A stretch of DNA of 64,000 bases from an uncultured Planctomycetales bacterium. GTDB lineage: Bacteria > 4484-113 > JAFGCY01. The notes beneath the pieces were generated by a model that had not been told where the DNA came from, did not search any database, and was given only the letters and a program-made list of their open reading frames with translations. Of the stretch, positions 3,721-57,710 are shown in pieces. Made by a program: the position numbers and the translations under genes. The stretch is taken from the NCBI GenBank assembly GCA_964512635.1, contig CAZEJB010000014.1:15704-79703 (forward strand), in the 5' to 3' direction. Within the stretch, counting starts at the first letter, position 1. Each line of letters begins with the position of its first letter.

Positions 3721-4312
3721 CAGTTCCTCCTTGGAGAGCAGCAGTCGGCCACTTGGTATGCCGGCCTGCCGTGACACGGGATAAAGCCTAGCATGTGCGG
3801 ACCCGTTGCGGCGTCTGCGCCGAGGCGCGCGCTGCCCGCGGGCAGCGTTCAACAAGCTCACAGACGGGCCGGCCGGCGCAGTGGTTACCGGACAGCCCCG
3901 CTTCAGGGGCCTACAGCAGCCTCCAAAGCGTCCGAGAACGCGCATGCAGGGATAGAGCCGCGCGGGGCAGGGGAGGTAACGGGCCAGTGCGCGGACGATC
4001 CGTCCGCGTTTGTGTATTTTCCGGGAGTGCCGGGCCAGGCCCGGCATTTTTACCGGAACGCCGACCCGCCGCGCTTGCATCTCTTCCCGGAGCGCCGGTC
4101 GACCGACCGGCTTCCTGTCCCCCACGGCCGGCTGCAAGCCGGGCTCTTGCCCTGGGGCGCCAGCCATAGGCTGGCGTCCTCTCCGGCTGTTACAATCCCC
4201 GCAGATGTCCACTGCCCCGCAAAACCGGCAGCACAGCTCCGCAGGCCGCGCCGCGCCACGTCCGGTGGCACCGGCTTGCAACCGGTGGGTTTTCGCGGCT
4301 GCGCCGCGTGCT

Positions 4313-4425
4313 GGAGCGCCGGCTTCAGCCGGCATCTCCTGGGGAGCGCAGACTTCAGCCGGCATCTGCTGGGGAGCGCAGACTTCAGCCGGCATCTGCT
4401 GGGGAGCGCAGACTTTAGTCTGCAT
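4313..4425. repeat. Tandem of four GGAG-type REP-like palindromes (about 30-bp period)
   Basis: GGAGCGCCGGCTTCAGCCGGCAT, 2x GGAGCGCAGACTTCAGCCGGCAT, GGAGCGCAGACTTTAGTCTGCAT. Relatives at about 25155 and 27847-27902. Confidence 0.8.
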
Positions 4426-4486
4426 CTTCAAGCAGCGCGGACATCTTGCCCGCGTCGCCCGCTCGCGCGGATCGCGTAGCCGGCCG

Positions 4487-6094
4487 GTCATCATTGCCGG
4501 CGGGACCAACGACTGGCAGTGGACCAAGATCACGCACCAGGTTGACGCAATCGGGCGCACCAGCGACAGCAACTACCGCCAGTGGTTGAATGGCGGCAGC
4601 GAGCCTGCCGGTGATAGCCTGCAGCATGTCTACGACCAGGCCGGGCGGATGGTGCAGAACTACGACGGCACCTCCGCGTACGGCGCGACTTGGCGCTGGG
4701 CCGGCGCGGCCAACAGCCACAATGGCCCGCTCTGGGGTCCGGCTGCGGATACCTCCAGCCAGGTCAACCACAATGTTGCTGCGGGCAGTTTCAAGGGCAT
4801 CCCGGTGCGCCGTAGCTTCAGCCAGCCGACAGTCGAAGGCGACAAGCGTGAGCTCTTCGGCCAAGGCCGCCCACAGGCCAAGGACAGCGTGAGCAGCTGG
4901 CACCTCGGCATCCAGTCCGGCCCGCAGCCCGCCTCGCTGCAAGGCACTACTACCAGTCGCTTCAGCTTCATCGGCACCGTCGCCGCGACCGACATGAGCC
5001 GCGCGACCGACAGCCGTGAAGCCGGCCGCATCGGCATCTTCGGCTCTGCGCTGAGCTATGGCGGGAGCTATGGCCGTGTGACGAACGAGGCGATTGGTAG
5101 GGATGTAAATCCGCTTGGAAGGAGTGGAGGGTTCGCTCTAGTAGGCGGTTCCCAGAATTTTAACAGAATCTCCGCCGTCATACCCCTTACCATTAGAAAA
5201 GGTATGGGCAGCGGTAACTCGATTAATAATGATGGGATGCCGACTCCCGATTGCCCAGACCCAGAATGTGTAGGTGGGGGTACTAAGTACTGGGATAAAT
5301 ACGCAAAATCGGACTGCTGCATCTGGCATGCAAAGGTTTGGGAACATGATAATGAATGGGACCAATGTCTCTGCAAAGTGAGATCGTGCCGTCCCGACAT
5401 CTGCCCTGACTGCAGCTCCAGTGAATGGCGCCATATAACTGAGTGTTGCTATTGTATGGAGTGCAAAGCTCGCAATCGAGCAGATAAAAAGTGTGAGTAT
5501 CCATGCAAATTTGATTGCGCTGGTCCCAAGTGGTGCCAAATGCCTGACGACTGCTACTGCCAAGAGAAGTCAGACGGCGGTTCGGGCGATGATGGAGGAG
5601 ATGGGTTGTGCTGGATCGTAGTACCAGGAAGCAAACAGTTAGGTTCATTTATGGGCGGGTGCTACGTCCCTGGCCCAGGTGAGGAGAATGATCCAGGTGC
5701 TAATCCAGGAGGACAATTGACCTACAAATGCAGCGTCACGGCAACTCAATTGTGCCAGTCAATTCCATGTAAGAGCGGTGGAACCAAGACAGCCTATTAT
5801 GCTGCTGCAGTGAGTTGCACTTGCTTCAATTTCAAGGATACAACCCAAGGCACAGGAACCGTGAGTGTAAACTTGCCCTGCGGGAAGTCATTCTCCCCCA
5901 GCGAAAAGTCGGTGTTTGGCGGCAGAATAAAGAATGTTCTGGGACAAATTCTCTGTCCGTGCTCGGATTTTTCGGGAATCGATGGTGAGCCTCCTCCCAT
6001 TTCGTTGATGGAACGGTTTGGAACGAGGCGTGGTTCGATCACTTTTGTTTCAAACATTTCAAGAGATCTAGGAGGTAAACGGGGATGTTGTTGA
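4487..6094 (+). CDS. Orphan Rhs/YD-like core fragment fused to a Cys-rich variable C-terminal (putative toxin) domain; true start unclear
   Basis: YD-like segments (HQVDAIGR, HVYDQAGR), a DPxG-like boundary (GRDVNPLG), a visible GC drop at about 5080-5110, and about 30 Cys afterwards. Confidence 0.6.
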   Translation, partial: VIIAGGTNDWQWTKITHQVDAIGRTSDSNYRQWLNGGSEPAGDSLQHVYDQAGRMVQNYDGTSAYGATWRWAGAANSHNGPLWGPAADTSSQVNHNVAAGSFKGIPVRRSFSQPTVEGDKRELFGQGRPQAKDSVSSWHLGIQSGPQPASLQGTTTSRFSFIGTVAATDMSRATDSREAGRIGIFGSALSYGGSYGRVTNEAIGRDVNPLGRSGGFALVGGSQNFNRISAVIPLTIRKGMGSGNSINNDGMPTPDCPDPECVGGGTKYWDKYAKSDCCIWHAKVWEHDNEWDQCLCKVRSCRPDICPDCSSSEWRHITECCYCMECKARNRADKKCEYPCKFDCAGPKWCQMPDDCYCQEKSDGGSGDDGGDGLCWIVVPGSKQLGSFMGGCYVPGPGEENDPGANPGGQLTYKCSVTATQLCQSIPCKSGGTKTAYYAAAVSCTCFNFKDTTQGTGTVSVNLPCGKSFSPSEKSVFGGRIKNVLGQILCPCSDFSGIDGEPPPISLMERFGTRRGSITFVSNISRDLGGKRGCC

Positions 6095-6687
6095 GTCAAA
6101 TCCCAGTGTTCGTAGCTGTAATGGCATTGCTAGCTCAGTGCGGCGGTGATGAAACGAATGTATCTGCCACACCATCTGAAGTCGATTTCATTAGCCGAGA
6201 TATTAGTACAATTCGTGACTCTGGAGCTCTAGGGCTCATAGAAGTTTACGATTTGTTTTCCATTGAAGAGAATACGGTGGCGCTTTACGCAAATAATGAC
6301 CCGAATGAGGAATGGGTAAGGATGTGGAATTCTAATATCGAAATTGCCTATGATGGTGGAGGCAAGAATGGTTGGCAGTTGTCCACAAGTAGTGATTTCC
6401 AGGCATGCATTTTCCAGACTAGTTCAATTTGGTATGCACAAGCTAACGGACTGAGCGCAGACAGGCTTTGCGACCTATTGCGAGAAGAGGTGAAATCAGC
6501 TAAACCAGAGGTAAGTACTTCAATGACAGGAAGTAACATAATCCAATGGAGAGCGCAAGGTGTATTTATTGGAATCATAAGTAAAGAAGACTTTCTGAAT
6601 TCCGATACACCAATTGCATTTACACTGCAATTCTCAAGAGCTCCAGCTGCCGACCGTATCGAGAAACCGACGCGTCAACAGCAATGA
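6085..6687 (+). CDS. Low-GC lipoprotein, putative immunity partner
   Basis: LAQC lipobox-like signal, 10-bp overlap with the upstream ORF, and the same low GC as the Rhs tip. Confidence 0.6.
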   Translation: MLLSQIPVFVAVMALLAQCGGDETNVSATPSEVDFISRDISTIRDSGALGLIEVYDLFSIEENTVALYANNDPNEEWVRMWNSNIEIAYDGGGKNGWQLSTSSDFQACIFQTSSIWYAQANGLSADRLCDLLREEVKSAKPEVSTSMTGSNIIQWRAQGVFIGIISKEDFLNSDTPIAFTLQFSRAPAADRIEKPTRQQQ

Positions 6688-7200
6688 GGGCATCGCTTTC
6701 AAGAAGCTCCTTTTGCGGAGGTTTTGGCACCGCTATTGAACTGATAGCACTATTTGGCCAGCACTTGGCAGTTCTGAGAAGGCAACTTGGCCGCTTGACC
6801 TTACGCTGCAATGGCTGGGCTACCTGACGCAGGCAGACCATCCTCAAGTGACGAACAGCGTCGGCAGTAGGAAGATAAGTGGTAGTTTTTTTAGTCTCAG
6901 TGTTAGAACGAACTCCGCGCACAGTCGAATTTTTTATGGCGCCGACCCGCCTAGCTGCTCTCCGAGCGGCGGGAGGGGCGGAGTCGGGTTCATTTGAGAA
7001 GCAGCAAAAGCCTGATTTGATCAGGCTGGAAGCGGCTTCCAGGCCCTTCTTGTCCCTTACTACCGTAATCAGGGCCTTAGTAAGGGGTAGATTGAGCTTT
7101 GTTCCTGGCTGTGTTAGTTTGTGTAGGACTTCGGATAGCTTCAAGCAAGGACCACCATTACTGCGGACATGCCGCCATTCGCAAGCTCATGGCGGTCTAG

Positions 7201-7300
7201 GCTACGCGGGGCTAAGCCCCGTAGCGTCCCGGCTAGAAATGCCGGCCGGGGACAAGCCCCGGCCCTACGAGAACTGGGGCTGCCGGGCTTAGCCCGGCGT
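7201..7300. repeat. Cluster of REP-like hairpins
   Basis: CTACGCGGGGCTAAGCCCCGTAG, GCCGGGGACAAGCCCCGGCCCTAC and GCCGGGCTTAGCCCGGC. Confidence 0.7.
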
Positions 7301-7452
7301 ACTTTAGACCGGCGAGCGCCGGCGCGAGACGGCATGGCCGCCAGCGGCGCAGCCGCATACCTTCCGTGCGAGGCGCGCAGCGCTGAGCGCGGCCTCCGTT
7401 GTAGCATGCAGTGTGGGCAGATCGACGACCACTTGGGGCGTCGCCCACTTAC

Positions 7453-13173: not shown

Positions 13174-13550
13174 GAGAGCTCGGCCACCAGTGCACGGACC
13201 ACGGCGCGCTGGGCGAAGAGCGCACGGATTATCCCGGCTTCGCCAAGGCAGTGGGGGAGGCGGTCAGCGCCGCTCCAGGCAGCCTCGGCCTGGTCTTTTG
13301 CGGCAGCGGGATCGGCATCAGCATCGCGGCAAACAAGGTACATGGCATCCGCTGCGCAGTCGCCTGGTGCGAGCATGTCAGCGAATACGGCCGCCGCCAT
13401 AACCATGCCAACTGCCTGGCCTTTGGCGCGGATGTACAGACCTGGGTCGAGGTCGAGCGCTGCCTGAACGCCTACCTTGGCGCCACCGAGGAAGGCGGGC
13501 GCCACGCCCAGCGGGTGGAGATGGTGAAGGAAATGGACGGGAAGCGCTGA
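13107..13550 (+). CDS. rpiB: Ribose 5-phosphate isomerase B
   Basis: GSDHRG, DYP, CGSGIGISIAANKVHGIRCA and HNHAN motifs. GGAGG RBS before TTG 13107. Confidence 0.93.
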   Translation: MEIHLGSDHRGFELKERALEYLRELGHQCTDHGALGEERTDYPGFAKAVGEAVSAAPGSLGLVFCGSGIGISIAANKVHGIRCAVAWCEHVSEYGRRHNHANCLAFGADVQTWVEVERCLNAYLGATEEGGRHAQRVEMVKEMDGKR

Positions 13551-13556
13551 GTTCTA

Positions 13557-13648
13557 GTAGGGCCGCACGGATGTGCGGCCGATCTTGGATCCTGCTTCCG
13601 AAACCCGCATGCCGGGAAGAAGACGGCCGCACATCCGTGCGGCCCTAC
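13557..13648. repeat. Inverted GTAG-REP doublet (REPIN-like)
   Basis: GTAGGGCCGCACGGATGTGCGGCC, a 44-nt spacer, then its exact reverse complement. Confidence 0.85.
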
Positions 13649-13659
13649 CAGTCTTGCTA

Positions 13660-14277
13660 CTAAAGCGTAACCAACACGGCCCGGCAGGGCGATGCCTCGG
13701 CACCGCCGATCTTCAGCGGCAGGCAGTGCAGTTCATAGCGCCCGGGCTTGACCTGCCGCAGATCGACATCCTCCAGGATCAGCACGTTGAAGCTGCTCAG
13801 CAGCCGGTGGACCGGAAAGTCCTCGTCGTGGCCCCGCTCGATGGAGAGGTAGTCAATCCCCACCAGCGCGGCGCCGCGGTCCAGCAGCAGCTGCGCGGTA
13901 TCCAGGCTGACATAGGCGTGGTGCTCAATGTAGCTGTCGCGCTGCAGCTCGCCGTTGAGGGTCTTGAACAGCACGGCATCGCCTTCCATGATCTGCAGAT
14001 CATCCAGCGCCTTCGGCCCGATCACGTCAATCGTGTCCACCTCCACTACGTGGGCCGTCAGCACAAAGCGCTCCAGCGGAATCTGGTCGATACTCGGCCC
14101 GTCTTCGATGAAGTGCGCCGGGGCGTCGATGTGCGTTCCAAGGTGCAGGCTGGCGCTGATCTTTGAGAGCATGTAGCCCTGGTCAACCACCATGGCGACT
14201 GCTTCAAGTTCGGTCTCTGGATCTCCGGGATAGTCGATTGTGTCGAGGCCAATGGTACGCGTGATGTCAATGAGCAT
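13660..14277 (-). CDS. Cyclase / kynurenine formamidase (KynB-like) family, copy 1
   Basis: HLGTHIDAPAHF, VGIDYLS and H..LL...ILE motifs. Confidence 0.9.
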   Translation of the reverse strand: MLIDITRTIGLDTIDYPGDPETELEAVAMVVDQGYMLSKISASLHLGTHIDAPAHFIEDGPSIDQIPLERFVLTAHVVEVDTIDVIGPKALDDLQIMEGDAVLFKTLNGELQRDSYIEHHAYVSLDTAQLLLDRGAALVGIDYLSIERGHDEDFPVHRLLSSFNVLILEDVDLRQVKPGRYELHCLPLKIGGAEASPCRAVLVTL

Positions 14278-15040: not shown

Positions 15041-16057
15041 CTAATACCCCGCCTGATAGCTCCCGTCGCTGATTGCCTGCATCCATGCTTCATTGGCGAG
15101 GTACCAGTCGATAGTGCGTTTAAGGCCTTCTTCAAAGGGCACAGCGGCCTTGAAGCCCAGTTCGGTCTCGATCTTATGGCCGTCAATGGCATAGCGGCGG
15201 TCGTGACCCGGGCGGTCGGGCACGAAGCTGATTAACCCCTCAGGCTTGTCGAGCAGGTGCAGCAGGGTACGCACCAGTTCAATGTTGGGCAGCTCCGTGC
15301 CACCGCCAACGTTATAGACCTCGCCGGGCCGTCCATGTTGCAGCACGGTCCACAGCGCGCGGCAATGGTCCTCAACATAGAGCCAGTCGCGCACATGCAG
15401 TCCGTCGCCATAGACCGGCAGCGGCTCATCGCGCAGAGCCTTCTGGATCATCAACGGGATCAGCTTTTCAGGGAACTGCCTCGGGCCATAGTTATTGCTG
15501 CAGCGGGTGTTCATGATCGGCAGGCCGTGGGTGCGGAAGTAGGCGCGGCACATCAGGTCGGCGGCGGCCTTGGAGGCGCTGTAGGGGTTGTTCGGCGCCA
15601 GCGGTGAGCTTTCGGAGAACTCGCCCTCCTCGCCGAGGCTGCCATAGACCTCGTCGGTAGACACCATCAGGAAGCGCGGAACCGGCTGGCCGTTCTTATT
15701 CAGCTTCAGCAGGGCGTCCAGCAAAACCTGGGTGCCAACGATGTTGCTCTCCACGAAGGGCATCGCTGAGACGATGCTGCGGTCGACCATGCTCTCGGCG
15801 GCCAGGTGCATGATGCCGTCGAAGCTGCCCTGGCCTACCAGCTCGTCAACCAGCGCGCGGTCGGCCACATCGCCATGGACAAAGCTGTAGCGCGGGTCGT
15901 CGGCGATATCGGCGAGGTTCTGGGGGTTGCCGGCGTAGCTGAGCTTGTCCAGGTTGACCAGATTGACGATGTTGAGGCCGGACTGCTCGGACAGCAGCAT
16001 GCGGATCAGGTTCGACCCGATGAAGCCGCAGCCGCCGGTGATGAGGATTTGGTTCAC
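15041..16057 (-). CDS. rfbB: dTDP-glucose 4,6-dehydratase
   Basis: ITGGCGFIGS, DKLSYAG, HLAAES.VDRSI, STDEVYG, YSASKA and RPGHDRRYAID. Confidence 0.93.
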   Translation of the reverse strand: MNQILITGGCGFIGSNLIRMLLSEQSGLNIVNLVNLDKLSYAGNPQNLADIADDPRYSFVHGDVADRALVDELVGQGSFDGIMHLAAESMVDRSIVSAMPFVESNIVGTQVLLDALLKLNKNGQPVPRFLMVSTDEVYGSLGEEGEFSESSPLAPNNPYSASKAAADLMCRAYFRTHGLPIMNTRCSNNYGPRQFPEKLIPLMIQKALRDEPLPVYGDGLHVRDWLYVEDHCRALWTVLQHGRPGEVYNVGGGTELPNIELVRTLLHLLDKPEGLISFVPDRPGHDRRYAIDGHKIETELGFKAAVPFEEGLKRTIDWYLANEAWMQAISDGSYQAGY

Positions 16058-16066
16058 GAAGATATT

Positions 16067-16131
16067 GTAGGGCCACACGGATGTGCGGCCGTCCTTGACT
16101 GGAAAAGGGCCGCACATCCGTGCGGCCCTAC
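16067..16131. repeat. Inverted GTAG-REP doublet between divergent rfbB and tag
   Basis: Same unit as 13557 with one substitution; 17-nt spacer. Confidence 0.85.
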
Positions 16132-16155
16132 AAGAACGCATGCAACAATCCCCAC

Positions 16156-16737
16156 ATGCCCAAAGAGCTGATCCGCTGCGACTGGTGCCATTCCACGCCG
16201 CAGTACATTGCCTACCACGATGAAGAGTGGGGCGTGCCAAAGCGCGACCGCCGGCGGCTGTTTGAGGACCTGATCCTCGATGGATTCCAGGCCGGCCTGA
16301 GCTGGCGCACGATCCTGGAGAAGCGCGAGAACTTCCGCCGCGCCTTCGACAACTTCGAGCCGGAGAAGATTGCGCGCTATGGCGACCGCGAGACCTCGCG
16401 GCTGCTCGAAGACGCGGGTATAGTGCGCAACCGCCAGAAGGTCGCCGCCACTATCGGCAACGCCAAAGCGCTGCTGGCGCTGGAGCAGGAACTGGGCATT
16501 GGCTTCGAGCAGTACATCTGGGACTTCGTCAAGGGCAAGCCGGTGGTCAACAATTGGACCAGCATGGGCGAGATCCCGGCCAAGACGGAGCTGTCCGACG
16601 AAATCAGCAAGGCTCTGCTAAAGCGCGGCTTCAAGTTCGTCGGCAGCACTATCGTCTATGCCTTTATGCAGGCGGTCGGGATGGTCAACGACCACATCGT
16701 CACCTGTCATCGTTACAAGGTCGTTGGAAAGGGCTAG
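16156..16737 (+). CDS. tag: DNA-3-methyladenine glycosylase I
   Basis: RCDW, YHDEEWG, FQAGLSW, IVRNRQK, KRGFKFVG and GMVNDH. Confidence 0.93.
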   Translation: MPKELIRCDWCHSTPQYIAYHDEEWGVPKRDRRRLFEDLILDGFQAGLSWRTILEKRENFRRAFDNFEPEKIARYGDRETSRLLEDAGIVRNRQKVAATIGNAKALLALEQELGIGFEQYIWDFVKGKPVVNNWTSMGEIPAKTELSDEISKALLKRGFKFVGSTIVYAFMQAVGMVNDHIVTCHRYKVVGKG

Positions 16738-17549: not shown

Positions 17550-17800
17550 TAGCGGGGGATTGTCCCCGTGCGAATTTAGCCATTTAGCTGATTGCTGCTC
17601 TGTAATAGATCAAAACAGGACGCAGAGATGCAGAGGACGCTGAGTTTCGCAGAGAAGAATCCTTGATGATTCCTGGGATTCCGTCGTAGCTCGATCCGGG
17701 CTCTGCGTTCTCTGTGTCTCTGCGTCATGTGTTTGTTTTCGAAGACGGGCGGGGACAAGCCCACGCCCCTATCCGGAAGGCGGGTCAAGACCCGCCACTA
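17550..17800. repeat. GTAG-REPs plus an inverted pair of 9-bp arrays
   Basis: GACGCAGAG-type units at about 17618-17654 and complementary CTCTGCGT units at about 17700-17727. REP hairpins at about 17550, 17750 and 17780. Confidence 0.65.
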
Positions 17801-17945
17801 CAAAGCAAAAAAGCGGATGGACCTTGCGATCCACCCGCCTGTATTCCTCAAACAGAGGAACAATTCCAATGCCCAGGCTGCCCCCCGAGATGCAGCGCTG
17901 CGCCGAGTAGGAGCTCTACAGCGGCCCGCTCGTATAATCAAAGAC

Positions 17946-18587
17946 GTGGAACAGGTCACAAGGTTACTGGGGCTTTTGCCCGAAATTTACGGGCGGGGCT
18001 TATTGGACGCCAGCGGGGGCAGTTTCGCCGTGCGCGGCAGCAAGGGCGTCTATGTCAGCCCGCTGCAGGCCGGGCCGGCGCTGCGCTGGCAGCTCCAGAT
18101 CGACGACCTGGTGCTGTTCCCGGGCCCGGGGGAGGCTTCTATGGCCCGCGCCGGCCGCCAGCCCTGCCGCGACAACCGCAGCCACCGGGCGCTGCTCGCG
18201 GCAAGGCCGGACTGGAATCTCAGCATTCACGGACATTCATGGGGCCTGCTGGCCTTTGCCCTCGCGGGGGTCGATCTGCCGGTCGTGGCCGAGCACTACG
18301 CGGCTTTTAAGGCAGGCCGGGCGGCGGAGATTCACTGCCTGCCCTCGGTTACAGGCGGGCTAGCCCAGCTGCCGGAAGTGGTCGTCGCTGCCATGGGACG
18401 GCAGTTCTCGGGCCAGCCGCACGGTGCACTTCTGCTTGGCGGCAATGGCCCGCTGGTTTGCGGCAGCACAGTTGAGTCAACCTTGAGTACGCTCGAGCTT
18501 CTTGAGCAGCTGGCCCGGGCCCAGCAGTGGCGGCTGGTCAAGCCGGCGCCGCATCCCTCGGCGCCAGCGGTGCCCGAGGTCGGTTAG
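17946..18587 (+). CDS. Class II aldolase/adducin-fold protein
   Basis: RGLLDASGGSFA (cf. SGN.S), IHGHS (HxH) and a C-terminal LE.LA. GTG start follows TATAAT. Confidence 0.65.
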   Translation: MEQVTRLLGLLPEIYGRGLLDASGGSFAVRGSKGVYVSPLQAGPALRWQLQIDDLVLFPGPGEASMARAGRQPCRDNRSHRALLAARPDWNLSIHGHSWGLLAFALAGVDLPVVAEHYAAFKAGRAAEIHCLPSVTGGLAQLPEVVVAAMGRQFSGQPHGALLLGGNGPLVCGSTVESTLSTLELLEQLARAQQWRLVKPAPHPSAPAVPEVG

Positions 18588-20700: not shown

Positions 20701-20961
20701 GGAATGATCCTCCTCGAATGTGCCGGCCGCGGGCCGAGGGGGCAGCCCGGGCTCGTTCGGGCGGGATTTTAGCAGGCGGAATCGGGCGCTGGCCGCGCGG
20801 CGGCAGGCTATAATGACCCTCCCGCGCCCGGGGCAAAAACGGCGCGGCGGAAGCGGACAAATGCGATAGGCGCGCCCGGCGCGGATGCCGGGTAGACTTA
20901 GGTCAGGGCAGGCCGTCAGGGCCGGCCGGAGGGTTGGGCGTAGCCCAGAGTGGAGAGGAAC

Positions 20962-23900
20962 TTGTCCGCGTTTGTCCATCTGCATAATCACAGTGAGTAC
21001 TCGCTGCTTGACGGCATTGCGCGCGTCGGCGACATGGCTGCACGCCTCAAGGCGCTGGAATACGACGCCTATGCACTGACCGACCACGGCGTCATGTATG
21101 GCGCCCTCGAATTCTATCTGGGCATGCAGGCCGCCGGGATCAAGCCGATCATCGGCTGCGAGGTCTATGTCGCCAGCCGTAAGCTGACGGATAAGGACAG
21201 CCAGCTTGACCGCAAGAGCTGGCATTGCGTACTGCTGGCTCAGAACGAGACGGGCTACATCAACCTGATGCGTCTGACCTCGATCGCGCACCGCTTTGGC
21301 TATTACTACAAGCCGCGGGTCGACGTCGAGGCGATCCGGGCGCACAGCGAGGGCATCATCTGCCTCACCGCCTGCCCCAACGGCGTGGTCGCCGGTCCCT
21401 TTCATGGAAAGGCGATGGGGGACGAGGGCCACGAGTCCGAGAGCCGCGCGTCGCAAAGCCAGGGGCCAGGCAGCGGGCTGGTCGGCGGCGGGCTTGATGG
21501 CGCCGACAACGAATGCGAGGCTGGCGGGGTTACGGCGGCACACGAGGCCGCGGCACGCCGCGCGCTCGAAACCTATCTCGAAATCTTCACACCCGAGCGC
21601 TTGTTCCTGGAGATCCAGAACCACGGCATGGACATGGAACGGGCCTACAGCCCCTGGGCCGCGGATATGGCCCAACGCTACGGTCTGCGCCTGGTCGCGA
21701 CCAACGACTGCCACTATGTGGCCAAGGATGATGCCCGGGCCCACGATATCTGCCTGTGCCTGCGCGACAAGAAGCTGCTCAGCGACGAGGACCGCCTGCG
21801 CTACAGCGGGCCGGAGTATTACATCAAGACCCAGGCGGAGATGGCCGAGCTGTTCGGCGCCTATCCGCAGGCACTTGCCAATACCAGGGCTGTCGCTGAC
21901 CTGTGCAACCTGAGTCTTGACCTCAAGCGGGTCTACTTCCCGCAGATGGAAGTGCCGATCGTAGGGGCGAGTCCTGACTCGCCATCTTCTGCCGTAGGGG
22001 TGGGGCTTGTCCCTACCCGTGATGGCGGTGCCGAAGACGGGCGGGATCAAGCCCAAGCCCCTCAAGTCGGAACGGAAGATGGGCGGACACAAGGTCCGCC
22101 CCTACAGGAAACCACCACCGATCAGGCCGCGCAGGATGCCTGGCTGCGCCATCTGGTCCACGAGGGTGCGATCCGGCGCTATGGCAGCATCAGCTCCGAG
22201 CTGCAGGAACGAATTGACTATGAACTTGGCGTGATCATCCCCAAGGGTTTTACGACCTACTTCCTGATCTGCCACGACTTTTGCGACTTCGCCCGCAGCA
22301 AGGGCATCCCGGTCGGCCCCGGCCGTGGTTCCGCCGCCGGATCGGTGGTCGCCTATTGCCTTGAGATCACCGACCTGGACCCGATCAAGTACGGCCTGTA
22401 CTTCGAGCGCTTCCTCAACCCGGAGCGCATCGAGCTGCCGGACGCGGACATCGATTTCTGCTACCGCCGGCGCGATGAGGTGATCGAGCACGTCAAGAAC
22501 AAGTACGGTGCGGACCGGGTTGCGATGATCATCACCTACAGCCGCCTGAAGGCCCGCGCGGTGATCAAGGCGGTCGGCCGCACCAAGGGCATCGCCTTCC
22601 AGTACACCGATAAGGTGACCAAGGAGATCAACGGCCTCAACCCGACCATCGACGAGGCCATTGAAGGCAGCAAGGTGCTGCAGGAGATGATCCGCTCGGA
22701 CAAGGAAATCGCCGAGCTGGTCGAGGATGCCAAAAAGCTGGAGGGAATCGCGGCCTACCAGTCCGTGCACGCGGCGGGTATCGTCATCGCCCCCAGCGAG
22801 ATCAGCAACTACGTCCCGGTCCAGCCGATCAAAGACAGTGATCTGCTGGTGACCCAGTACAGCATGGACTATGTCCCCAAGGCTGGTCTGGTTAAGTTCG
22901 ATTTCCTCGGCCTGCGTAACCTGACGATGATTGAGGACACGGCGCAGTACATCCGCCGGTATGTCGACCCTAGCTTCGACGCCCGCTTTGTCCCTGAAGA
23001 CGACCCTGAGACCTACGCCATGCTGCAGCGCGGCGACAACTACGGCGTGTTCCAGTTTGAAGCGCCGCAGGTGCGCCGGATGCTGATCGACGGCCGGCCG
23101 GAGAACGTGATCGACCTCGCGGCGATCAACGCGGCCAACCGTCCCGGTCCGCTGCAGAGCGGCGGTACCGCCCAGTACCTTGAGGCCCGCAAGGCCGGCA
23201 AGCAGAGCCAGGCGCGCTTCAAGAGCATCGCGACTATCCTTGAAAGCACCGGCGGCGTGCTGCTGTTCCAGGAACAGGTGCTGGAGATCGCCAAGCAGCT
23301 CGGCGGCTTCAGCCTCGGCGAAGCGGACCTGCTGCGCAAGGCGATGGGCAAGAAGAACATGGAAGTCATGCTGGCCCAGAAGGAGAAGTTCCTGGCCGGC
23401 GCCAAGCGCATTGCCGACGAGGGCGGTGCCAGGATCCCCACCCAGGAACTGGAAGACATCTGGCAGATGATGGAGACCTTCGCGGGCTATGGATTTAACA
23501 AGGCCCACTCGGTCTGCTATGCCTGGATTGCCTTCCAGACGGCTTACCTGAAGTGCCATTATCCGCACTATTTCATGTGTGCGATGCTCAACAGCTACCT
23601 CGGCAATGCGGCCAAGCTGGCGCAGATTCTGGCGCAGTGCCGGCGGATGAAGATCCAGGTGCTGCCGCCGAGTGTTAATGACGGCGAGCTGGAGTTTACG
23701 CCGACCGCCACCACGGGGATGGGCGAGATCGGCTCGATCATCTTTGGCCTTGGCGGTATAAAGGGCCTGGGCTCTGCGGCGGTCGATGTGATCCTGGCCG
23801 AGCGCCAGCGCGGCGGTGCATTTGGTGACCTGACGGACTTCTATAAGCGCACGAAGAGCAGCGCGCTGAATAAGAAGGTGCTGCAGAGCCTGGCCTGCGC

Positions 23901-25113
23901 CGGCGCCTTTGACTGCCTCGAGCCGCAGCGCAGCAAGCTGATCCAGCGCCTCGACGATATTGATGTCTTCCTGCGCGGGCCGGAAAAGCAGTTCTCGATG
24001 TTTGACGATTTCAACGCCTCAAGCGAGAACGATAGTGTGCTGCCCAGCAAGGAAGTCACGCGTATCGACATCGCGATGCTGGAGAAGGAAGCCATTGGCC
24101 TCTTCCTCACCGAACATCCCTACGCCGACCACCCGATGTTCTTTGACGACCGCTATGTCCAGCTGGAGCGCCTGCAGGAACTGGTCAACGAAAACCCGGC
24201 ATTCTGGCAGGAACGCCCGCTGCCGGCCAAGGGAATTGTCGGACTGCTGACCAATGTGACGATCCGCATGGCCAATACCAGCAACAAGCCTTTCGCCAAG
24301 GCACGGCTTGAAGATCCGGAACGCGGCGTCGAGCTGGTCATCTGGCCGCGCACACTGGAAGCCGCCCGCGACCTGGTTACTGAAAACAACCCGGTGATTG
24401 TCTGGGGCAAGGTCCAGACGCCGGATGTTGCGGCTAGCGCCGAGCAGGGCGACGAGAGCGAAGCTTTTGAGGCGATCGAGATCATCGTCGAAAAGGTCGA
24501 GCAGTACATCCCGCCACCAGGTGGGATTACCCCACGCGGCGACCGGGAAGAGCGCAGCGCAGCACCCCGCGAGACAACGTCCGCCGCGCGAAATCCCAGC
24601 CGGCTGGCCGATCTGACGGCCAGCGACCTGGCTGCGGCTGAGGCGGTAATGCAGATATCGGATAACGCTGCAGCGGGGGCCAGTCCGGCGCCCGTCCCTG
24701 AGAGCAATCAGGACCACTTGCCGTCCTCGCAGACGCGGCTGCGGCCTGTCCTGCGCCGTGTTGATGCAGACTCGGCAAGCTTCGAAAGCGCCGATGCCGC
24801 TCAGGAAGGAAGTTCATCGCCGTCGCCGGGCCAGTCCGCCGAGGCCGCCGATGAACTGGGCAAGGGTCTTGGCATGATCACCTGGTCTGTCGACCTTAGC
24901 CAGGCCGATGCCGCCGCGCTGAAACTGCTGGCGAATACCCTTGAGCGCACCGAAGGTGAGCAGGAGGTCCGCATGCTGCTAAAGGATGTCGGCGGACAGC
25001 TGCGCCAGATCCGCGTGGGCCAGCGCTTCTTCATCGACGCCCAGCAGGCCGAGGCCATCGAACAGCAGTTCGGCTTCCTGGAACGCATACAGCGCGGCCA
25101 GCCCCAGGCCTGA
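20962..25113 (+). CDS. dnaE: DNA polymerase III alpha subunit with several in-frame insertions
   Basis: FVHLHNHSEYSLLDG, TDHG, GRGSAAGS, PDADIDF, HAAG, KFDFLGL and FNKAH, plus an OB-fold. TTG start after GAGAGGA. Confidence 0.96.
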   Translation: MSAFVHLHNHSEYSLLDGIARVGDMAARLKALEYDAYALTDHGVMYGALEFYLGMQAAGIKPIIGCEVYVASRKLTDKDSQLDRKSWHCVLLAQNETGYINLMRLTSIAHRFGYYYKPRVDVEAIRAHSEGIICLTACPNGVVAGPFHGKAMGDEGHESESRASQSQGPGSGLVGGGLDGADNECEAGGVTAAHEAAARRALETYLEIFTPERLFLEIQNHGMDMERAYSPWAADMAQRYGLRLVATNDCHYVAKDDARAHDICLCLRDKKLLSDEDRLRYSGPEYYIKTQAEMAELFGAYPQALANTRAVADLCNLSLDLKRVYFPQMEVPIVGASPDSPSSAVGVGLVPTRDGGAEDGRDQAQAPQVGTEDGRTQGPPLQETTTDQAAQDAWLRHLVHEGAIRRYGSISSELQERIDYELGVIIPKGFTTYFLICHDFCDFARSKGIPVGPGRGSAAGSVVAYCLEITDLDPIKYGLYFERFLNPERIELPDADIDFCYRRRDEVIEHVKNKYGADRVAMIITYSRLKARAVIKAVGRTKGIAFQYTDKVTKEINGLNPTIDEAIEGSKVLQEMIRSDKEIAELVEDAKKLEGIAAYQSVHAAGIVIAPSEISNYVPVQPIKDSDLLVTQYSMDYVPKAGLVKFDFLGLRNLTMIEDTAQYIRRYVDPSFDARFVPEDDPETYAMLQRGDNYGVFQFEAPQVRRMLIDGRPENVIDLAAINAANRPGPLQSGGTAQYLEARKAGKQSQARFKSIATILESTGGVLLFQEQVLEIAKQLGGFSLGEADLLRKAMGKKNMEVMLAQKEKFLAGAKRIADEGGARIPTQELEDIWQMMETFAGYGFNKAHSVCYAWIAFQTAYLKCHYPHYFMCAMLNSYLGNAAKLAQILAQCRRMKIQVLPPSVNDGELEFTPTATTGMGEIGSIIFGLGGIKGLGSAAVDVILAERQRGGAFGDLTDFYKRTKSSALNKKVLQSLACAGAFDCLEPQRSKLIQRLDDIDVFLRGPEKQFSMFDDFNASSENDSVLPSKEVTRIDIAMLEKEAIGLFLTEHPYADHPMFFDDRYVQLERLQELVNENPAFWQERPLPAKGIVGLLTNVTIRMANTSNKPFAKARLEDPERGVELVIWPRTLEAARDLVTENNPVIVWGKVQTPDVAASAEQGDESEAFEAIEIIVEKVEQYIPPPGGITPRGDREERSAAPRETTSAARNPSRLADLTASDLAAAEAVMQISDNAAAGASPAPVPESNQDHLPSSQTRLRPVLRRVDADSASFESADAAQEGSSSPSPGQSAEAADELGKGLGMITWSVDLSQADAAALKLLANTLERTEGEQEVRMLLKDVGGQLRQIRVGQRFFIDAQQAEAIEQQFGFLERIQRGQPQA
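21961..22105. repeat. Four GTAG-type REPs (two forward, two reverse) inside the dnaE coding sequence
   Basis: GTAGGGGCGAGTCCTGACTCGCC (21961), GTAGGGGTGGGGCTTGTCCCTACCC (21994), a degenerate unit at about 22039, and GGGCGGACACAAGGTCCGCCCCTAC (22081). Confidence 0.85.
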
Positions 25114-27666: not shown

Positions 27667-28188
27667 GATCCACCTCCATGTGGCTGTGCCCAACACGGGC
27701 GCACGGGGCAAGCATAACCGCCCAGGCGCGTGCTCGGGCTAAAGGCGGGTTAACACCGCGTACAGCTTGGCCGGACGCTTTAAGCAAAGTGCAACCGCCC
27801 GCGTTGAGCGCTGCGCATAGCCTGTAACCCCGCACGGCATTTTTATGGAGCGCTGGGACTGGCCCGGCATCTTCGCTGGGGAGCGCAGACTTTAGACTGC
27901 ATCTCTCATTCGAGCAGCCTGGAACTTCGCTGCTATCCAAATCAAATCCAACAGGAGACGCAAAGACCCTGAGGATATGGAGGTCGTCGAGCCAGTCAGG
28001 CTGAAGTTCATGTCGACATTCCTGCACTCCGTACAGCGCAGCCGAGCAGCCCTCATTAGTCGCTGTGACTCAGTGTCTCCTGTTTGCTTTTGGATTTGCT
28101 CTGCGGCACCGCGGCTCTTTGTGAATCCCAGCTTTACGCGCCGGGGCACGACGCGCGCAGGGCGCCGCGCTGCTTTTGGGAGAATTGT

Positions 28189-28559
28189 GCGAGTGGGCCA
28201 TAAGCCGGGTTCTGTTTATGCGGCCATCTGTCTGGGCCGTCTGTCTCCAGACGGCTCATGCGGTATTGCGCGGGGGCCGGGCCAGCCTTGCCGCTTTCGC
28301 GGCTCCCACGTCTGCCTTGCACCAGGCGGGTTTGCCTGAGCCGGCGTGTTACCACGCCGCTGGTGAGCTCTTAACTCGCCGTTTCACCGTTGCCAGCGGA
28401 CTCCCTGACCGGAATTTAGGCCTTATGGCCTAGAGCTGGCTGTTTGTTTCTGTAGCGCGTTCCATGGCCTCGCGACCTCCGGGTGTTACCCGGCGCCCTG
28501 CCCTGTGGTGCCCGGACTTTCCTCGAGGTGTTAACCCCGCGGCCGCTTGGCCCACTCGC
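28189..28559 (-). ncRNA. rnpB: RNase P RNA (type A)
   Basis: GAGGAAAGTCCGGGCACC, AACAGAAACAAAC, and the 3' ACAGAACCCGGCTTAT. Complementary ends GCGAGTGGGCCA/TGGCCCACTCGC form P1. Confidence 0.95.
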
Positions 28560-33208: not shown

Positions 33209-33835
33209 GTAGGGGCGGGGTAGTATCCCCGCCCCGGTGGAGCCTGCTAGCAGCTGACTAAAGCAGTCCCTGGCGCTTGAGGTGCCAGCGCAGCGGGTTG
33301 CTGACCACATACTGGCGATGGAACTCAAGGTCCTTTTCGCCGTCAAGAGAGCTATCCCAAAACCCTGGTTGCCAGAATTGCCCATCGTAAGGTGGCCAGC
33401 CAAGCTCCCTGACACCAACTCCGTACTGCTTCGTACTGTGGCGCTTGAAGTTACCGATTACGGCTGACAAGTCGGGGCGCTGAGGGAAAACCTCAAGATG
33501 TGGATGCGTGAGTCGGGTTTCGACAATGCCAAGCACTGCATGGAAGTGGTCAGGCATGACAATGTGACAGTCAAGAACCAGTCCCGGATTATGTTCTGGC
33601 ATGGCCAGCCAGATCTCCTCGATTTTCCTGCCGATTGCGTTGAGCTCCAGGCTTCCTTCTACAATTCGTCCAAACAGTGGCCTGCGCTCTGCCAGGCAGA
33701 CTGTCACGAAGTAGTTGCCACGCGTGTAATCTATGCGAGGGTCACGCATCGAGTTGCGGCTGCGATAGTCCCTAGGATCTTCAGGCATCGTGCATTGTAG
33801 CCAACAGCCGGGCGGGGATGCTACCCCGCCCCTAC
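33209..33835 (-). mobile_element. RAYT locus: transposase gene between inverted GTAG-REPs
   Basis: GTAGGGGCGGGGTAGTATCCCCGCCC at 33209 and a near-identical reverse copy at 33810-33835. Confidence 0.85.
33258..33788 (-). CDS. REP-associated tyrosine transposase (RAYT, Y1/HUH)
   Basis: NYFVTVC, VMPDHFH (HUH), FKRHS, FWQPGFWD and QYVVSNP (catalytic Tyr). Confidence 0.9.
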   Translation of the reverse strand: MPEDPRDYRSRNSMRDPRIDYTRGNYFVTVCLAERRPLFGRIVEGSLELNAIGRKIEEIWLAMPEHNPGLVLDCHIVMPDHFHAVLGIVETRLTHPHLEVFPQRPDLSAVIGNFKRHSTKQYGVGVRELGWPPYDGQFWQPGFWDSSLDGEKDLEFHRQYVVSNPLRWHLKRQGLL

Positions 33836-34089
33836 AAGAAGATAAAGTGGGCTCTTGCTGTGCAAGCAGCCCGGAGATCCGCGCCAAGAGCAATGTCGCC
33901 CGAAAGAAGCGTGGGTCGCTGGCCAGGATTCTTCAACTCCCAGCGATATGCTTCGACCAACCTAATACAATAGGCGCCTTGTCGGACAGACCCACAGTTG
34001 ACCCGCCGGGAAGCGGGAATACGGGACAAAGTCCCGCGCTCCAACCTGAGCAGCCGGCCGGCTCGCCGCGGCGACTGCGTCTCCCGCCC

Positions 34090-35076
34090 CTGCTCGCCTT
34101 CGTGCTGAGGCGGCTGCTGCTGTCGATCCCGGTGCTCTTTGGTGTGACCTTCATATGCTATGGCATCCTGTCCGCCGCACCCGGTGACCCGGTGCGGATC
34201 ATCATGGGCCAGCACTATGACCCGGTCATTGCCGAACAGATCCGCAAAAGCTGGGGCCTTGACCAGCCCTGGCTGGTCCAGTACAGCCGCTTCCTCTGGC
34301 GCACGGCCCACGGCGATCTGGGACACAGCTATGCCAAGCGCACAGCGGTCGGTCCGTTTATCCTGGATAAGTTCGGCAACACCCTGCAGCTCACGCTGGT
34401 AGCTATGACGATCGCCATCGTGTTTGGCATGTCCGCGGGGATCGTCTCAGCGGCCTGGCCGCGCAGTCCGGCGGACGCCGCACTGATGATCCTCGCCGTG
34501 GCCGGCATTTCTATTCCGGTCTTCTGGCTTGGCATGTTGCTGCAGGTTAGCTTCGCCGCCAAACTTGGATGGCTGCCGGTCAGTGATATGAGCTACAGCG
34601 GCGACCTGACGACGCTCTGGAAGAGCAGCGGATCTTATCCAGCCTTCTGGTGGCAGGCCTACGGGCGCTACTTCGTGCTGCCGGGCCTGACGCTGGGCAC
34701 CGTGCCGATGGCGATCATCGCGCGGCTGACGCGCTCCAGCATGCTGGAGGTGCTCAATCAGGACTACATCCGCACCGCGCGGGCCAAGGGGCTGTCCTGG
34801 CCGCGGGTCGTGCTTACCCACGCCCTGCCCAACGCGCTGATCCCGGTGATCACCGTGATCGGCAACAACTTCGCGGCGCTGTTGACCGGCGCCGTGCTGA
34901 CCGAGACAGTGTTTGCCTGGCCTGGCCTCGGGCGCGTGATGGTCGAGGCGATCAGCCAGTTTGACTACCCGGTGGTCATGGGCGGCGTGATCCTGATGGC
35001 CTGCGTCTTCGTGCTGATCAACCTGCTCGTAGACATCACCTACGGCCTGATCGACCCACGCGTGAGGGCCGCCTGA
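34090..35076 (+). CDS. Peptide ABC transporter permease (OppB/DppB-like); start uncertain
   Basis: PGDP, GLDQPWLVQY, GDLG, and the EAA loop DYIRTARAKGL. Confidence 0.9.
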   Translation: MLAFVLRRLLLSIPVLFGVTFICYGILSAAPGDPVRIIMGQHYDPVIAEQIRKSWGLDQPWLVQYSRFLWRTAHGDLGHSYAKRTAVGPFILDKFGNTLQLTLVAMTIAIVFGMSAGIVSAAWPRSPADAALMILAVAGISIPVFWLGMLLQVSFAAKLGWLPVSDMSYSGDLTTLWKSSGSYPAFWWQAYGRYFVLPGLTLGTVPMAIIARLTRSSMLEVLNQDYIRTARAKGLSWPRVVLTHALPNALIPVITVIGNNFAALLTGAVLTETVFAWPGLGRVMVEAISQFDYPVVMGGVILMACVFVLINLLVDITYGLIDPRVRAA

Positions 35077-47278: not shown

Positions 47279-47725
47279 GGAGCGCGGACCCATGGTCCGT
47301 ATCTTCTGCGCTGCGACAAGCCAATGTGGTGCGGGGATCAACCACAAAGATCACAAAGGTTCACGAAGAACACGAAGAGTAGGAATAGAGCCTGGAAGCT
47401 GCCTCTGAGCTGTCATTCTGATGTAGCCAAGGGGGCTGGCAGAGTCTTAGCCTTAGTGCTCTTGGTGCTGCTTGGTGGGCCTGATGTTGAGAAAAGCCAT
47501 GTCCAGCTGTTCTGCTTTGCGTTCTTCGCGAGCTTTACGCTGTGATCTTTGTATGGCAGGTCCGGGACGGCCGAACTGGGGTAGGGGCGCACAGAGTGCG
47601 CCCGGCATTTGGCTCGCTGCCCAGAGCAGCGAATGACAATACCAATCCAATTCGCGGCCCCGGTAGGGGCCGGGCGCACGCGGTGCGCCCCTACAAGGCA
47701 AAAACGGACCATGGGTCCGCGCTCC
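47279..47725. repeat. Nested repeat array: a GGAG-REP pair enclosing a 9-bp array pair and a GTAG-REP doublet
   Basis: Outer REPs at 47279 and 47702-47725; 9-mers at about 47342-47376 and 47515-47550; GTAG doublet at 47581-47694. Confidence 0.8.
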
Positions 47726-56336: not shown

Positions 56337-57689
56337 ATGGATTACAATACGCGCCCGATGTCAGACGTGATGGCCACCTTCAACGACCGCAAGCGCAGCA
56401 TCCCCGAGCTCGCGCGCATGATCCAGCCGGGGATGCACGCCTATATCCACAGCAACGCCGGTATTCCGATCGAGCTGCTGACCGCGTTCACCGAGTACGC
56501 GCTGCACGAAGATGGCGCGCATCTCAAGGACCTCACCTTTACGCATCTGCTTACGCTCGGTGAGCTGCCTTACCTTTGCAGCGAACTGAAGCATCGTGTG
56601 CGCCACAACTCGCTGTTTGCGGCGGCGAACTGCCGCAATGCGATCAACAAGGGCGCGGCCGACTGGAACCCGATCCACCTTAGTGACGTTCACCGGCTGA
56701 TCGACGACAGCGGATCCAGACGCGATCCCAGAATGCATATTGACGTGGCCCTGATCCAGGTCAGCCCGCCGGATGAGCATGGCTTCTGCAGCCTTGGCGT
56801 TGCCACGGAGATCCTGCCGACTGTGCTGCGCAAGGCCGAACTGGTCCTGGCCGAGGTTAACCCGCGCATGCCGCGTGCGCTCGGCGAGTGCTTCGTGCAT
56901 ATCTCGCGCATTGACGCTCTGGCCGAGGTTGACCACGAACTGCCCGAACTGCCGCGGGCCGAGATAACAGAGCAGCACATGGCCTGCGGCGCGCATGTCG
57001 CCGGCCTGATCGAAGACGGCGACTGCCTGCAGACCGGTATCGGCGGTTTGCCTGATGCCGTCCTGGGTTTGGTCAAGGATCGCCGCGGCCTCGGGATGCA
57101 CAGCGAGCTCTTCAGCGACGGCGTGGTCGAACTGGTTGAAGCCGGTGTCATTACCGGCGAGCGCAAGAACCTGCATCCCGGCAAAGTGGTGGCCGGCTTC
57201 GTCATCGGCAGCCAGCGGGTTTACGAGTTCATCCATGACAATCCGCTAATCGAGATGCAGCCGCAGAACTACGTCAACGACCCCTTCGTGATCGCCCAGA
57301 ACGACAACATGGTGGCGATCAACAGCGCGCTGCAGATCGACCTGACCGGCCAGGTAGTGGCCGACAGCATGGGGCCGCAGATCGTCTCCGGCTTCGGCGG
57401 CCAGGTCGACTTCATGCGCGGCGCGGCGCGGGCCAAGCGCGGCCGGCCGGTGATCGCAATGCCGGCGACGGCCAAGGGCGGGACGCTTAGCCGCATTGTG
57501 GCCCAGCATCCCCAGGGCTACGCGGTCACGACCAGCCGCGCGGACGTGCGCTGGGTGGCCACCGAGCACGGCATCGTCAACCTCTTCGGCCTGAACATCC
57601 GCCAGCGCGCCAAGGCGCTGATCGAGCTGGCCGAGCCGCAGTTCCGCGAAGGCCTGCAGGAAGAGGCGATCAAGCTCGGGCTGCTGTAG
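56337..57689 (+). CDS. Acetyl-CoA hydrolase / 4-hydroxybutyrate CoA-transferase family
   Basis: VSPPDEHGFCSLG, EVNPRMP, LQTGIG..P, HSE, SG.GGQVDF.RGA and VATEHG. Confidence 0.92.
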   Translation: MDYNTRPMSDVMATFNDRKRSIPELARMIQPGMHAYIHSNAGIPIELLTAFTEYALHEDGAHLKDLTFTHLLTLGELPYLCSELKHRVRHNSLFAAANCRNAINKGAADWNPIHLSDVHRLIDDSGSRRDPRMHIDVALIQVSPPDEHGFCSLGVATEILPTVLRKAELVLAEVNPRMPRALGECFVHISRIDALAEVDHELPELPRAEITEQHMACGAHVAGLIEDGDCLQTGIGGLPDAVLGLVKDRRGLGMHSELFSDGVVELVEAGVITGERKNLHPGKVVAGFVIGSQRVYEFIHDNPLIEMQPQNYVNDPFVIAQNDNMVAINSALQIDLTGQVVADSMGPQIVSGFGGQVDFMRGAARAKRGRPVIAMPATAKGGTLSRIVAQHPQGYAVTTSRADVRWVATEHGIVNLFGLNIRQRAKALIELAEPQFREGLQEEAIKLGLL

Positions 57690-57710
57690 GGGCCGAGCAT
57701 GCTCGGCCCG

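Follow-up and report, generated by a model that had tools for sequence, protein, structure and literature searches.

In-frame REP units in the linker between the PHP domain and the palm of a replicative DNA polymerase III alpha subunit, and their probable origin in extragenic REP DNA

The survey of Di Nocera, De Gregorio and Rocco (2013, BMC Genomics 14:522; PMC3733652), in which prokaryotic repetitive extragenic palindromes (REPs) are divided into the GTAG and CGTC superfamilies, provides the closest background to the locus described here, a 145-nt cluster of four GTAG-type REP units inside the dnaE gene of a 64-kb stretch of DNA from an uncultured Planctomycetales bacterium (contig CAZEJB010000014.1; hereafter, the window). 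Additional file 3 of that survey contains about 70 rows of in-frame GTAG REPs from Opitutus terrae, inserted as single units or as dimers, with some open reading frames (ORFs) listed twice. Many of the peptides encoded by these REPs begin with VG or VAG, groups of REPs encode segments of 43-82 aa in Thauera and R. conorii, and the GTAG head often supplies a stop codon (PMC3733652). With about 70 such rows in Opitutus terrae alone, the statement in a first-pass annotation of the window, that coding insertion of palindromic repeats is known mainly from Rickettsia, could not be upheld. REPs were also reported in dnaE2, namely a GTAG unit at aa 934-971 in O. terrae and CGTC types at aa 166-246 in S. 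wittichii, 128-157 in R. palustris and 175-203 in E. litoralis, while a single CGTC unit occupies aa 853-861 of R. conorii dnaE; in-frame inserts, as the same authors argued, may sit in flexible linkers (PMC3733652).

The units in the window resemble the GTAG REPs of that catalogue (e.g. O. terrae GTAG-17/18/19) in the joining of a GTAG head to a GC-rich palindrome, in their in-frame occurrence as singles, dimers and groups, in the Gly/Pro/Ser/Ala-rich peptides that start with Val-Gly when read as GTA-GGN (VAGVADPG..., VGPALAAG...), and in the use of TAG as a stop, as seen at window position 57686. Replication and repair genes are, likewise, prominent hosts in the catalogue (uvrA/B/C, recBCD, polA, dnaE2, and the R. 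conorii dnaE). In contrast to the catalogued cases, the host here is a replicative dnaE carrying GTAG units, the units occupy the linker between the PHP domain and the palm, and four of them form a nested hairpin; furthermore, unrelated REPs are present at the same linker in three further lineages, a recurrence that we did not find described in PMC3733652. The phenomenon itself and the bias toward replication and repair genes were already described in 2013, and our data leave the known picture of REPs unchanged. What is new is the set of features just listed, and most of all the recurrence of unrelated units at one linker in four lineages of an uncultured clade, with a gene resembling a REP-associated tyrosine transposase (RAYT) nearby.

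The classical precedent for such insertions, the Rickettsia palindromic elements (RPEs; Ogata et al. 2000, Science 290:347), is known to us here as it is recounted in PMC3733652 and PMC3184786. In these accounts, RPEs are palindromic repeats of about 100-150 bp, found in frame in functional and often essential genes to which they add new peptide segments, and their tolerance is put down to a location in surface loops, in all of which they are like the insert studied here. Unlike it, they are described there as AT-rich and Rickettsia-specific, with RPE-4 and RPE-6 being CGTC-tagged (PMC3733652), and no dedicated RAYT is known for CGTC repeats, whereas the units in dnaE are composites of short GC-rich GTAG REPs with a RAYT-like gene in the vicinity. 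These units do not belong to the RPE family, and the resemblance is functional only. With the systems of REPINs (REP doublets forming hairpins) and RAYTs, and with the REPtrons of E. coli, S. maltophilia and Marinomonas (PMC8266576, PMC5581495), the window shares inverted doublets, a GTAG guide with CT upstream in many units, a putative HUH/Tyr transposase gene placed between inverted REPs and, as in group 3, a perfect palindrome right after GTAG. Those systems, however, are described as essentially extragenic, while in the window the RAYT falls under the NCBIfam equivalog cutoff and many different stem sequences coexist within 64 kb. REP clusters in alternating orientation are also typical of the bacterial interspersed mosaic elements of E. 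coli. Finally, repeats resembling miniature inverted-repeat transposable elements (ERIC, Correia/NEMIS, RU-3) occasionally encode ORF segments fused to genes (Delihas 2007, 2011; PMC3184786). RU-3 and YPAL/RU-2 fusions, however, are mostly at gene termini, whereas the dnaE insert lies 1 kb inside an essential gene and between domains of the catalytic core; internal in-frame fusions are known for other repeats such as RPEs (Ogata 2000, Croucher 2011).

The cluster sits 1011-1155 nt into dnaE (Table 1). Units A, B and D consist of GTAG(G) followed by a GC-rich 8-bp stem and a loop of 2-5 nt, so that a GTAG with an adjacent short GC-rich palindrome is present in three of the four units and is degenerate in unit C. 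The description of the cluster as four GTAG-type REPs, two forward and two reverse, was accordingly borne out, with the reservation that the head of C reads TGAG. As inverted repeats, B and C are 75% complementary across 24 nt, while A and D pair via their heads, and the RNA of the insert folds as a single nested hairpin, A:D enclosing B:C, at -86.9 kcal/mol versus -62.8 ± 4.3 kcal/mol when its dinucleotides are shuffled (z = -5.6). The insert is open in a single reading frame, that of dnaE, the remaining five having 1-2 stops each; the claim of about 48 stop-free codons was, in this respect, accurate. The translated context is ...FPQMEVP-I-VGASPDSPSSAVGVGLVPTRDGGAEDGRDQAQAPQVGTEDGRTQGPPL-QETTTDQAAQDAWLRHLV..., and the Gly/Pro/Ser/Asp/Arg-rich peptide includes DGGAEDGR and TQGPPLQETTTDQAAQDAWLR. 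G+C at the first, second and third codon positions (GC1/2/3) is 0.86/0.61/0.49 in the insert and 0.65/0.42/0.81 in the rest of dnaE, meaning that the insert is non-coding in character and lacks the strong GC3 signature of the window's genes. No promoter-like or terminator-like site was found in 21700-22400, and an internal promoter or an internal terminator at the insert was rejected on this basis.

Table 1. Coordinates of the dnaE host gene, its REP units and related features of the window
Feature	Position	Strand	Description
dnaE, replicative DNA polymerase III alpha subunit	20950-25113	+	One unbroken ORF, 1387 aa, with the REP cluster inside
REP cluster, 145 nt	21961-22105	+	DnaE residues about 338-385, ~48 codons
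REP unit A	21961-21989	+	GTAGGGGCGAGTCCTGACTCGCC then tail ATCTTC; perfect 8-bp stem
REP unit B	21994-22020	+	GTAGGGGTGGGGCTTGTCCCTACCC; 8-bp stem including one G-T pair
REP unit C	about 22033-22064	-	Head degenerated to TGAG; imperfect stem; plus-strand tail GAAGAC
REP unit D	22075-22105	-	GTAGGGGCGGACCTTGTGTCCGCCC then tail ATCTTC; 8-bp stem
Intergenic REP doublet	17741-17802	-	Sequence relatives: unit C and the reverse unit in L001 dnaE
RAYT-like Y1 (HUH) transposase ORF	33258-33788	-	NCBIfam, Pfam, motif alignment
REPtron left-arm REP	33209-33235	+	GTAGGGGCGGGGTAGTATCCCCGCCCC
REPtron right-arm REP, inverted	33810-33835	-	GTAGGGGCGGGGTAGCATCCCCGCCC

The units in dnaE are members of a population dispersed through the window. 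Searching the 64 kb for a GTAG with a stem of 7 bp or longer no more than a few bases after it returned 21 units, against 0-4 (mean 1.75) in 20 Markov shuffles; the hits at 33145 and 44925 do not have GGG after GTAG and probably occurred by chance, as the shuffles lead one to expect, which leaves about 19 of 21 as REP-like. Although stem sequences vary between families, all follow the common plan GTAG(G/T)G(G/C)C-stem-loop-stem, and in many units a CT precedes the GTAG at a distance of 1-2 nt. Inverted doublets are found at 13557/13648, 16067/16131, 41240/41761 and 61094/61233, those at 13557/13648, 16067/16131 and 61094/61233 being intergenic. Unit C is 27/30 identical (90%) to the intergenic stretch 17741-17770, and unit B is 19/21 identical (90%) to 7249-7269, within the unit at 7244-7268. 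The presence of related intergenic REPs near 17750-17800 had been noted in the first-pass annotation, and the doublet listed in Table 1 is in fact there, ahead of the point where Pfam matching starts in ORF 17727-18587. Placement was read from a GC3-based gene map, according to which the 20 units not belonging to dnaE fall into 14 between ORFs, five within the opening 45-173 nt of maximal ORFs, and one that gives a stop codon. Four of the five edge units, in the two ORFs scanned with Pfam (15041-16240 and 17727-18587), are upstream of the first Pfam-matched residue; the fifth, 45 nt into maximal ORF 33790-35076, is the right arm of the REPtron. REP copies in the 64-kb window are, then, overwhelmingly extragenic, and the dnaE cluster is the only deep intragenic case among about 50 genes. 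The unit that gives a stop codon is the REP at 57686-57708, where the TAG of the GTAG head ends ORF 56337-57689. An intergenic REP cluster at 47581-47694 includes a hairpin with GTAG/CTAC at both ends (47663-47694, GTAGGGGCCGGGCGCACGCGGTGCGCCCCTAC).

The host gene is replicative dnaE1 rather than dnaE2, as its product scores 1106 with the NCBIfam replicative Pol III alpha equivalog NF004226 (cutoff 1002) and 561 with the error-prone DnaE2 model NF004225 (cutoff 939), and has the full domain set, with PHP at aa 10-225 and DNA_pol3_alpha at aa 398-654 in Pfam, followed by the finger, HHH_6 and a weak OB fold. The insert lies after the last PHP-associated helices and before the helix that opens the palm. 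Its assignment to the PHP-palm junction in the first-pass annotation agrees with these Pfam domains and with the AlphaFold2 model we obtained for residues 1-700 from a 48-sequence alignment (mean predicted local distance difference test, pLDDT, 85.4; predicted template modelling, pTM, score 0.85). Structure prediction had been suggested as a check on whether the insert is a disordered loop, and such is the prediction: residues 342-381 have pLDDT <50 and no predicted secondary structure, with short strands on both sides, whereas the flanking PHP and palm domains are confidently modelled. The model superposes on Pol III alpha of Thermus aquaticus, M. tuberculosis and E. coli with TM scores of 0.73-0.78, and this indicates an ordinary catalytic core from which the insert loops out where the PHP domain meets the palm. 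The only other internal stretch of low confidence, residues 162-190, belongs to a second lineage-specific insert within the PHP domain (aa ~155-198; 21412-21543), which is common to P0002 and P0003 and in part to P0004-P0006, and has conserved flanks (GDEGHE ... DNECEAG..AAHE) around a variable centre with pLDDT <50. No REPs were found in the DNA of this PHP-domain insert, whose His/Cys/Glu-rich flanks could, to judge from their residues, bind metal. DnaE also has a C-terminal extension of about 200 aa past the OB fold (24500-25113; aa ~1185-1387), in which a disordered spacer is followed by a conserved terminal module (ITWSVDL...RFF...); this extension is clade-wide and varies in length between 122 and 219 aa.

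Alignment with relatives, also suggested earlier as a check, drew on a graded series of DnaE homologues, of which 120 are listed (the window's DnaE and 119 others). The linker had been said to be short in DnaE as a rule, and this holds for homologues of at most 42% identity and for Firmicutes-type DnaE, where it amounts to a few residues (FP.F.VP....(Y)L) and the insert is absent. It does not hold for the clade of 50-65% identity, in which the site is hypervariable. Several members of this clade are short, but relatives of 50-60% identity often carry an insert of about 55 aa that is not made of REPs (W..NP..AG ... E.AS.EE...FE; P0012, P0014-P0024) at the same PHP-palm point, and no GTAG hairpins were found in the corresponding DNA of L011 (10841-11059). 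This conserved insert, which may be an ancestral mini-domain of the clade lost in the window's subclade, indicates that the site was already tolerant of length. Conservation of the window's insert peptide in distant relatives would have spoken for an old protein segment, but BLASTP gave no significant match to it among the 119 other homologues listed, consistent with an insert restricted to its lineage.

REPs recur at this linker in relatives, each with units of its own. The metagenome-assembled genome (MAG) 'bacterium SJ870' (L001, JADZFO01, 80% aa identity) has an ortholog of unit A at 4012-4039 that is identical at 25 of 28 positions, with one uncompensated stem mismatch, and the peptide of this unit (VG.S.DSPS) is common to the two proteins. 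It is followed by the reverse unit GGCGGGTCAAGACCCGCCACTAC at 4063-4085, the same unit as window 17776-17802, and by a partial duplicate; no counterpart of unit B was found in the L001 alignment, and the two genes differ by whole units and not by substitutions. In L006 (P0025, 65%), the linker holds three REP units unlike the window's, in the order GTAGGGACAGGGCTTGCCCTGTCC right after the conserved Pro codon, a second forward unit, and a reverse unit ending in CCCTAC, and the first of these agrees at 28 of 30 positions with an intergenic copy that lies 1.2 kb upstream on the same contig. In L007 (P0004, 60%), a REP doublet sits 8 codons farther along and uses the other permissible frame, AGT-AGG. 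Linker REPs were looked for in the DNA of L009, L010, L011 and L012, and none were found. L012 (P0011), on the other hand, has a REP doublet, GGCGGCGTCTCGCCGCC ... GAAGACGGCGGCGTGACGCCGCCGCTAC, in frame within the disordered C-terminal spacer of its DnaE, indicating that a second DnaE spacer also hosts REPs; the L012 REPs are at 13380-13440 and 13942-13975, and a GTAG REP overlaps the stop codon of its dnaE. Beyond a conserved Pro codon in three of them, no common target motif was found in the DNA preceding the four independent inserts. That the linker is occupied in four lineages marks the site as special, and fits targeting as well as survival.

The relationships among these proteins give some indication of when the units arrived. 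In a neighbour-joining tree, the window's DnaE, P0002 and P0003 are sister to P0004-P0006, with P0025 outside. The window's DnaE and its 80% relative are each the only member of their 90% protein cluster, and a genome scan returned one close relative, L001, while a metagenome scan returned only a 36%-identical DnaE. The nearest relative with a short linker, P0003 (76% identity; JGI sample 3300056388), is known as a protein only; its linker, ILGGAELARPAASTTEHP, could at a guess be encoded by a palindrome. As judged from the alignment of its sequence, unit A predates the split of the window and L001. For the window and for L006, the intragenic units share about 90% identity with intergenic copies of the respective genome, whereas the host proteins are 35-40% different, which points to at least some of the acquisitions or conversions being recent and independent. 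The reverse unit of L001 matches either C or D, and what is firm is the orthology of A and the absence of B. Alignments of the window and L001 with and without B-C score 120 and 120.5, and nesting of B-C within an A-D doublet and loss of B from L001 thus fit equally well.

A candidate for the kind of enzyme that mobilizes these REPs is encoded within the same 64 kb. RAYTs flanked by inverted REPs, an arrangement called a REPtron, have been described, as has the activity of TnpA-REP, which recognizes single-stranded REPs and cuts at the CT adjoining the hairpin with GTAG as a guide (PMC8266576). In the window, the arms of a REPtron at 33209-33835 are inverted GTAGGGGCGGGGTAG(T/C)ATCCCCGCCC REPs, and the ORF between them matches NCBIfam REP_Tyr_transpos with E = 2e-16 over profile positions 4-136 of 146, at 60 bits and under the equivalog cutoff of 80, and Pfam Y1_Tnp weakly, at 18 bits and under the threshold of 23. 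Its HUH (DHFHAV) and Tyr (QYVVSNP) motifs align with those of E. coli TnpArep (PDB 4ER8). The architecture fits, but the profile scores are sub-threshold and the stem of the flanking REPs is unlike that of A, B and D; based on motifs and surroundings, this ORF likely represents the type of enzyme in question. Because of its low GC3, the ORF was missed by the GC3-based gene map, which picked a spurious ORF on the opposite strand instead.

Taken together, our analysis favours, with a probability we would put at roughly 0.83, the view that REP/REPIN DNA of the RAYT type landed repeatedly in a permissive inter-domain loop of dnaE and is translated there. According to this view, the 145-bp segment would be selfish and normally extragenic GTAG-type REP/REPIN DNA, whose units a RAYT (TnpA-REP, Y1/HUH) would recognize as single-stranded hairpins, cut, and rejoin beside the GTAG guide. 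The units would have lodged in the PHP-palm loop, presumably the only kind of place in dnaE where they could do so without harm, and their presence would be selectively neutral. The downstream frame would have been kept, with the sole stop-free frame of the element coinciding with that of dnaE, and an intact frame together with a stop-free element suggests that the element is transcribed and translated within DnaE. The product would be a disordered loop of about 48 residues on an enzyme that otherwise has the ordinary Pol III alpha fold. The build-up would have been stepwise, with unit A and probably the 3' units in place before the split from the 80% relative, and with unit B, or the B-C doublet, differing between the window and L001. 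Such accretion is to be expected, as existing REPs are themselves transposase substrates, and the finding that related lineages carry their own REPs in the same linker suggests a recurrent sink. The proposal in the first-pass annotation that REPs survive in a loop of an essential gene and create new peptide sequence is, in this sense, supported by the linker position, the predicted disorder and the lineage restriction.

We acknowledge that several points weigh against this view. Translation of the insert is deduced from the unbroken reading frame in which it lies within an essential gene. Unit A is old enough to be shared with the 80% relative, yet perfect stems persist in three units out of four, and this could reflect structural conservation or gene conversion rather than neutral drift. 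The occupancy of the linker in four lineages, with no other internal REP in the genes of the 64 kb, fits targeting or selection equally. The RAYT match stands at 60 bits against a cutoff of 80, with a flanking stem that differs from those of A, B and D. With the nearest REP-poor relative, P0003, represented by its protein, neither the precise ends of the insertion nor its target site can be defined.

It is unlikely that the cluster was instead kept or recruited in dnaE for a role at the nucleic-acid level, either as an mRNA hairpin of -87 kcal/mol that slows ribosomes between PHP and palm or sets the stability of the DnaE mRNA, or through a preference of RAYTs for replication and repair genes as targets, with modulation of the polymerase as a consequence (the mutator hypothesis of Di Nocera et al.). 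The stems kept in A, B and D and the strongly negative z of the whole-insert fold would suit such a role, as would the lineage-specific REPs at one linker in four lineages, the REPs of L012 in another DnaE spacer, and the published remark that REP-tagged genes of a genome are often confined to replication and repair (PMC3733652). The sisters L009/P0005 and L010/P0026, however, have REP-free linkers at the DNA level, and that of P0006, seen as protein, is too short; stem mismatches in unit C and in L001 unit A are uncompensated; stems, unit number and exact position vary by lineage in such a way that no common structure is conserved; the surrounding 700 nt hold no terminator-like or promoter-like signal; and the non-REP insert of about 55 aa in many relatives implies that the site simply tolerates length. 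A bolder form of the idea, which we consider quite improbable, would make the PHP-palm linker an actively targeted or selected REP landing pad, where a REP/RAYT system acting on single-stranded DNA at the fork would repeatedly remodel dnaE, and elsewhere dnaE2, uvrA and recBCD, the translated loop or the mRNA hairpin tuning polymerase level, folding or fidelity. If true, this would amount to a functional coupling of a domesticated transposase system and the replisome.

Two further explanations carry far less weight. The source is an uncultured organism, and a metagenome mis-assembly, a pseudogenized dnaE, or removal of the insert as an intron or intein might be invoked, yet we find this very improbable: four independent assemblies from different sources agree in having frame-preserving REPs at this linker, an argument against mis-assembly, and the gene has 1387 continuous codons with all Pol III alpha domains and scores above the equivalog cutoff. 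Pfam found neither a Hint/intein domain nor any extra domain in DnaE, Rfam gave no match to an intron or other RNA family in dnaE, and 48 aa is far below the size of an intein, so that the insert qualifies neither as an intein nor as a self-splicing intron. The notion that DnaE has long had a functional peptide here that is particular to its lineage, for instance a protein-interaction loop, with a coincidental or secondary likeness to REPs, is extremely improbable and already largely refuted. Many clade members do have an insert here, conserved at the aa level in P0012 and P0014-P0024, and the unit A peptide is shared with L001, but the window's insert is unlike the conserved one, and L011, which bears the latter, has no GTAG hairpins there. 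Moreover, the DNA units match intergenic REPs at 90%, a GC3 of 0.49 is of non-coding character, AlphaFold2 predicts no structure for the insert, and the differences from L001 are those of whole units.

On the favoured view of repeated REP landing in a permissive loop, non-coding selfish DNA would have been turned into protein sequence in one of the most constrained bacterial genes, with both the donor family and a RAYT-like gene within the same 64 kb, and with relatives that show successive stages, from no insert to doublet, triplet and nested quadruplet. This supports inter-domain loops as sinks in which REPs survive, and extends the published association of REPs with replication and repair genes to GTAG units in a replicative dnaE. 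From a practical standpoint, inserts of this kind mislead gene callers, domain boundaries and marker-gene alignments in MAGs.

Other features of the window (overall G+C 61.7%) are worth recording. The region ~5040-7450, which ends at REP 7244-7268, lacks any ORF satisfying the GC3 test and may consist of foreign or atypical DNA; within it are a reading frame rich in Cys (within 4010-6094, +) and an ORF of 200 aa (6085-6687, +). A bacterial class A RNase P RNA is encoded at 28186-28558 on the minus strand (Rfam RF00010, 214 bits), and the window yielded no tRNA genes.

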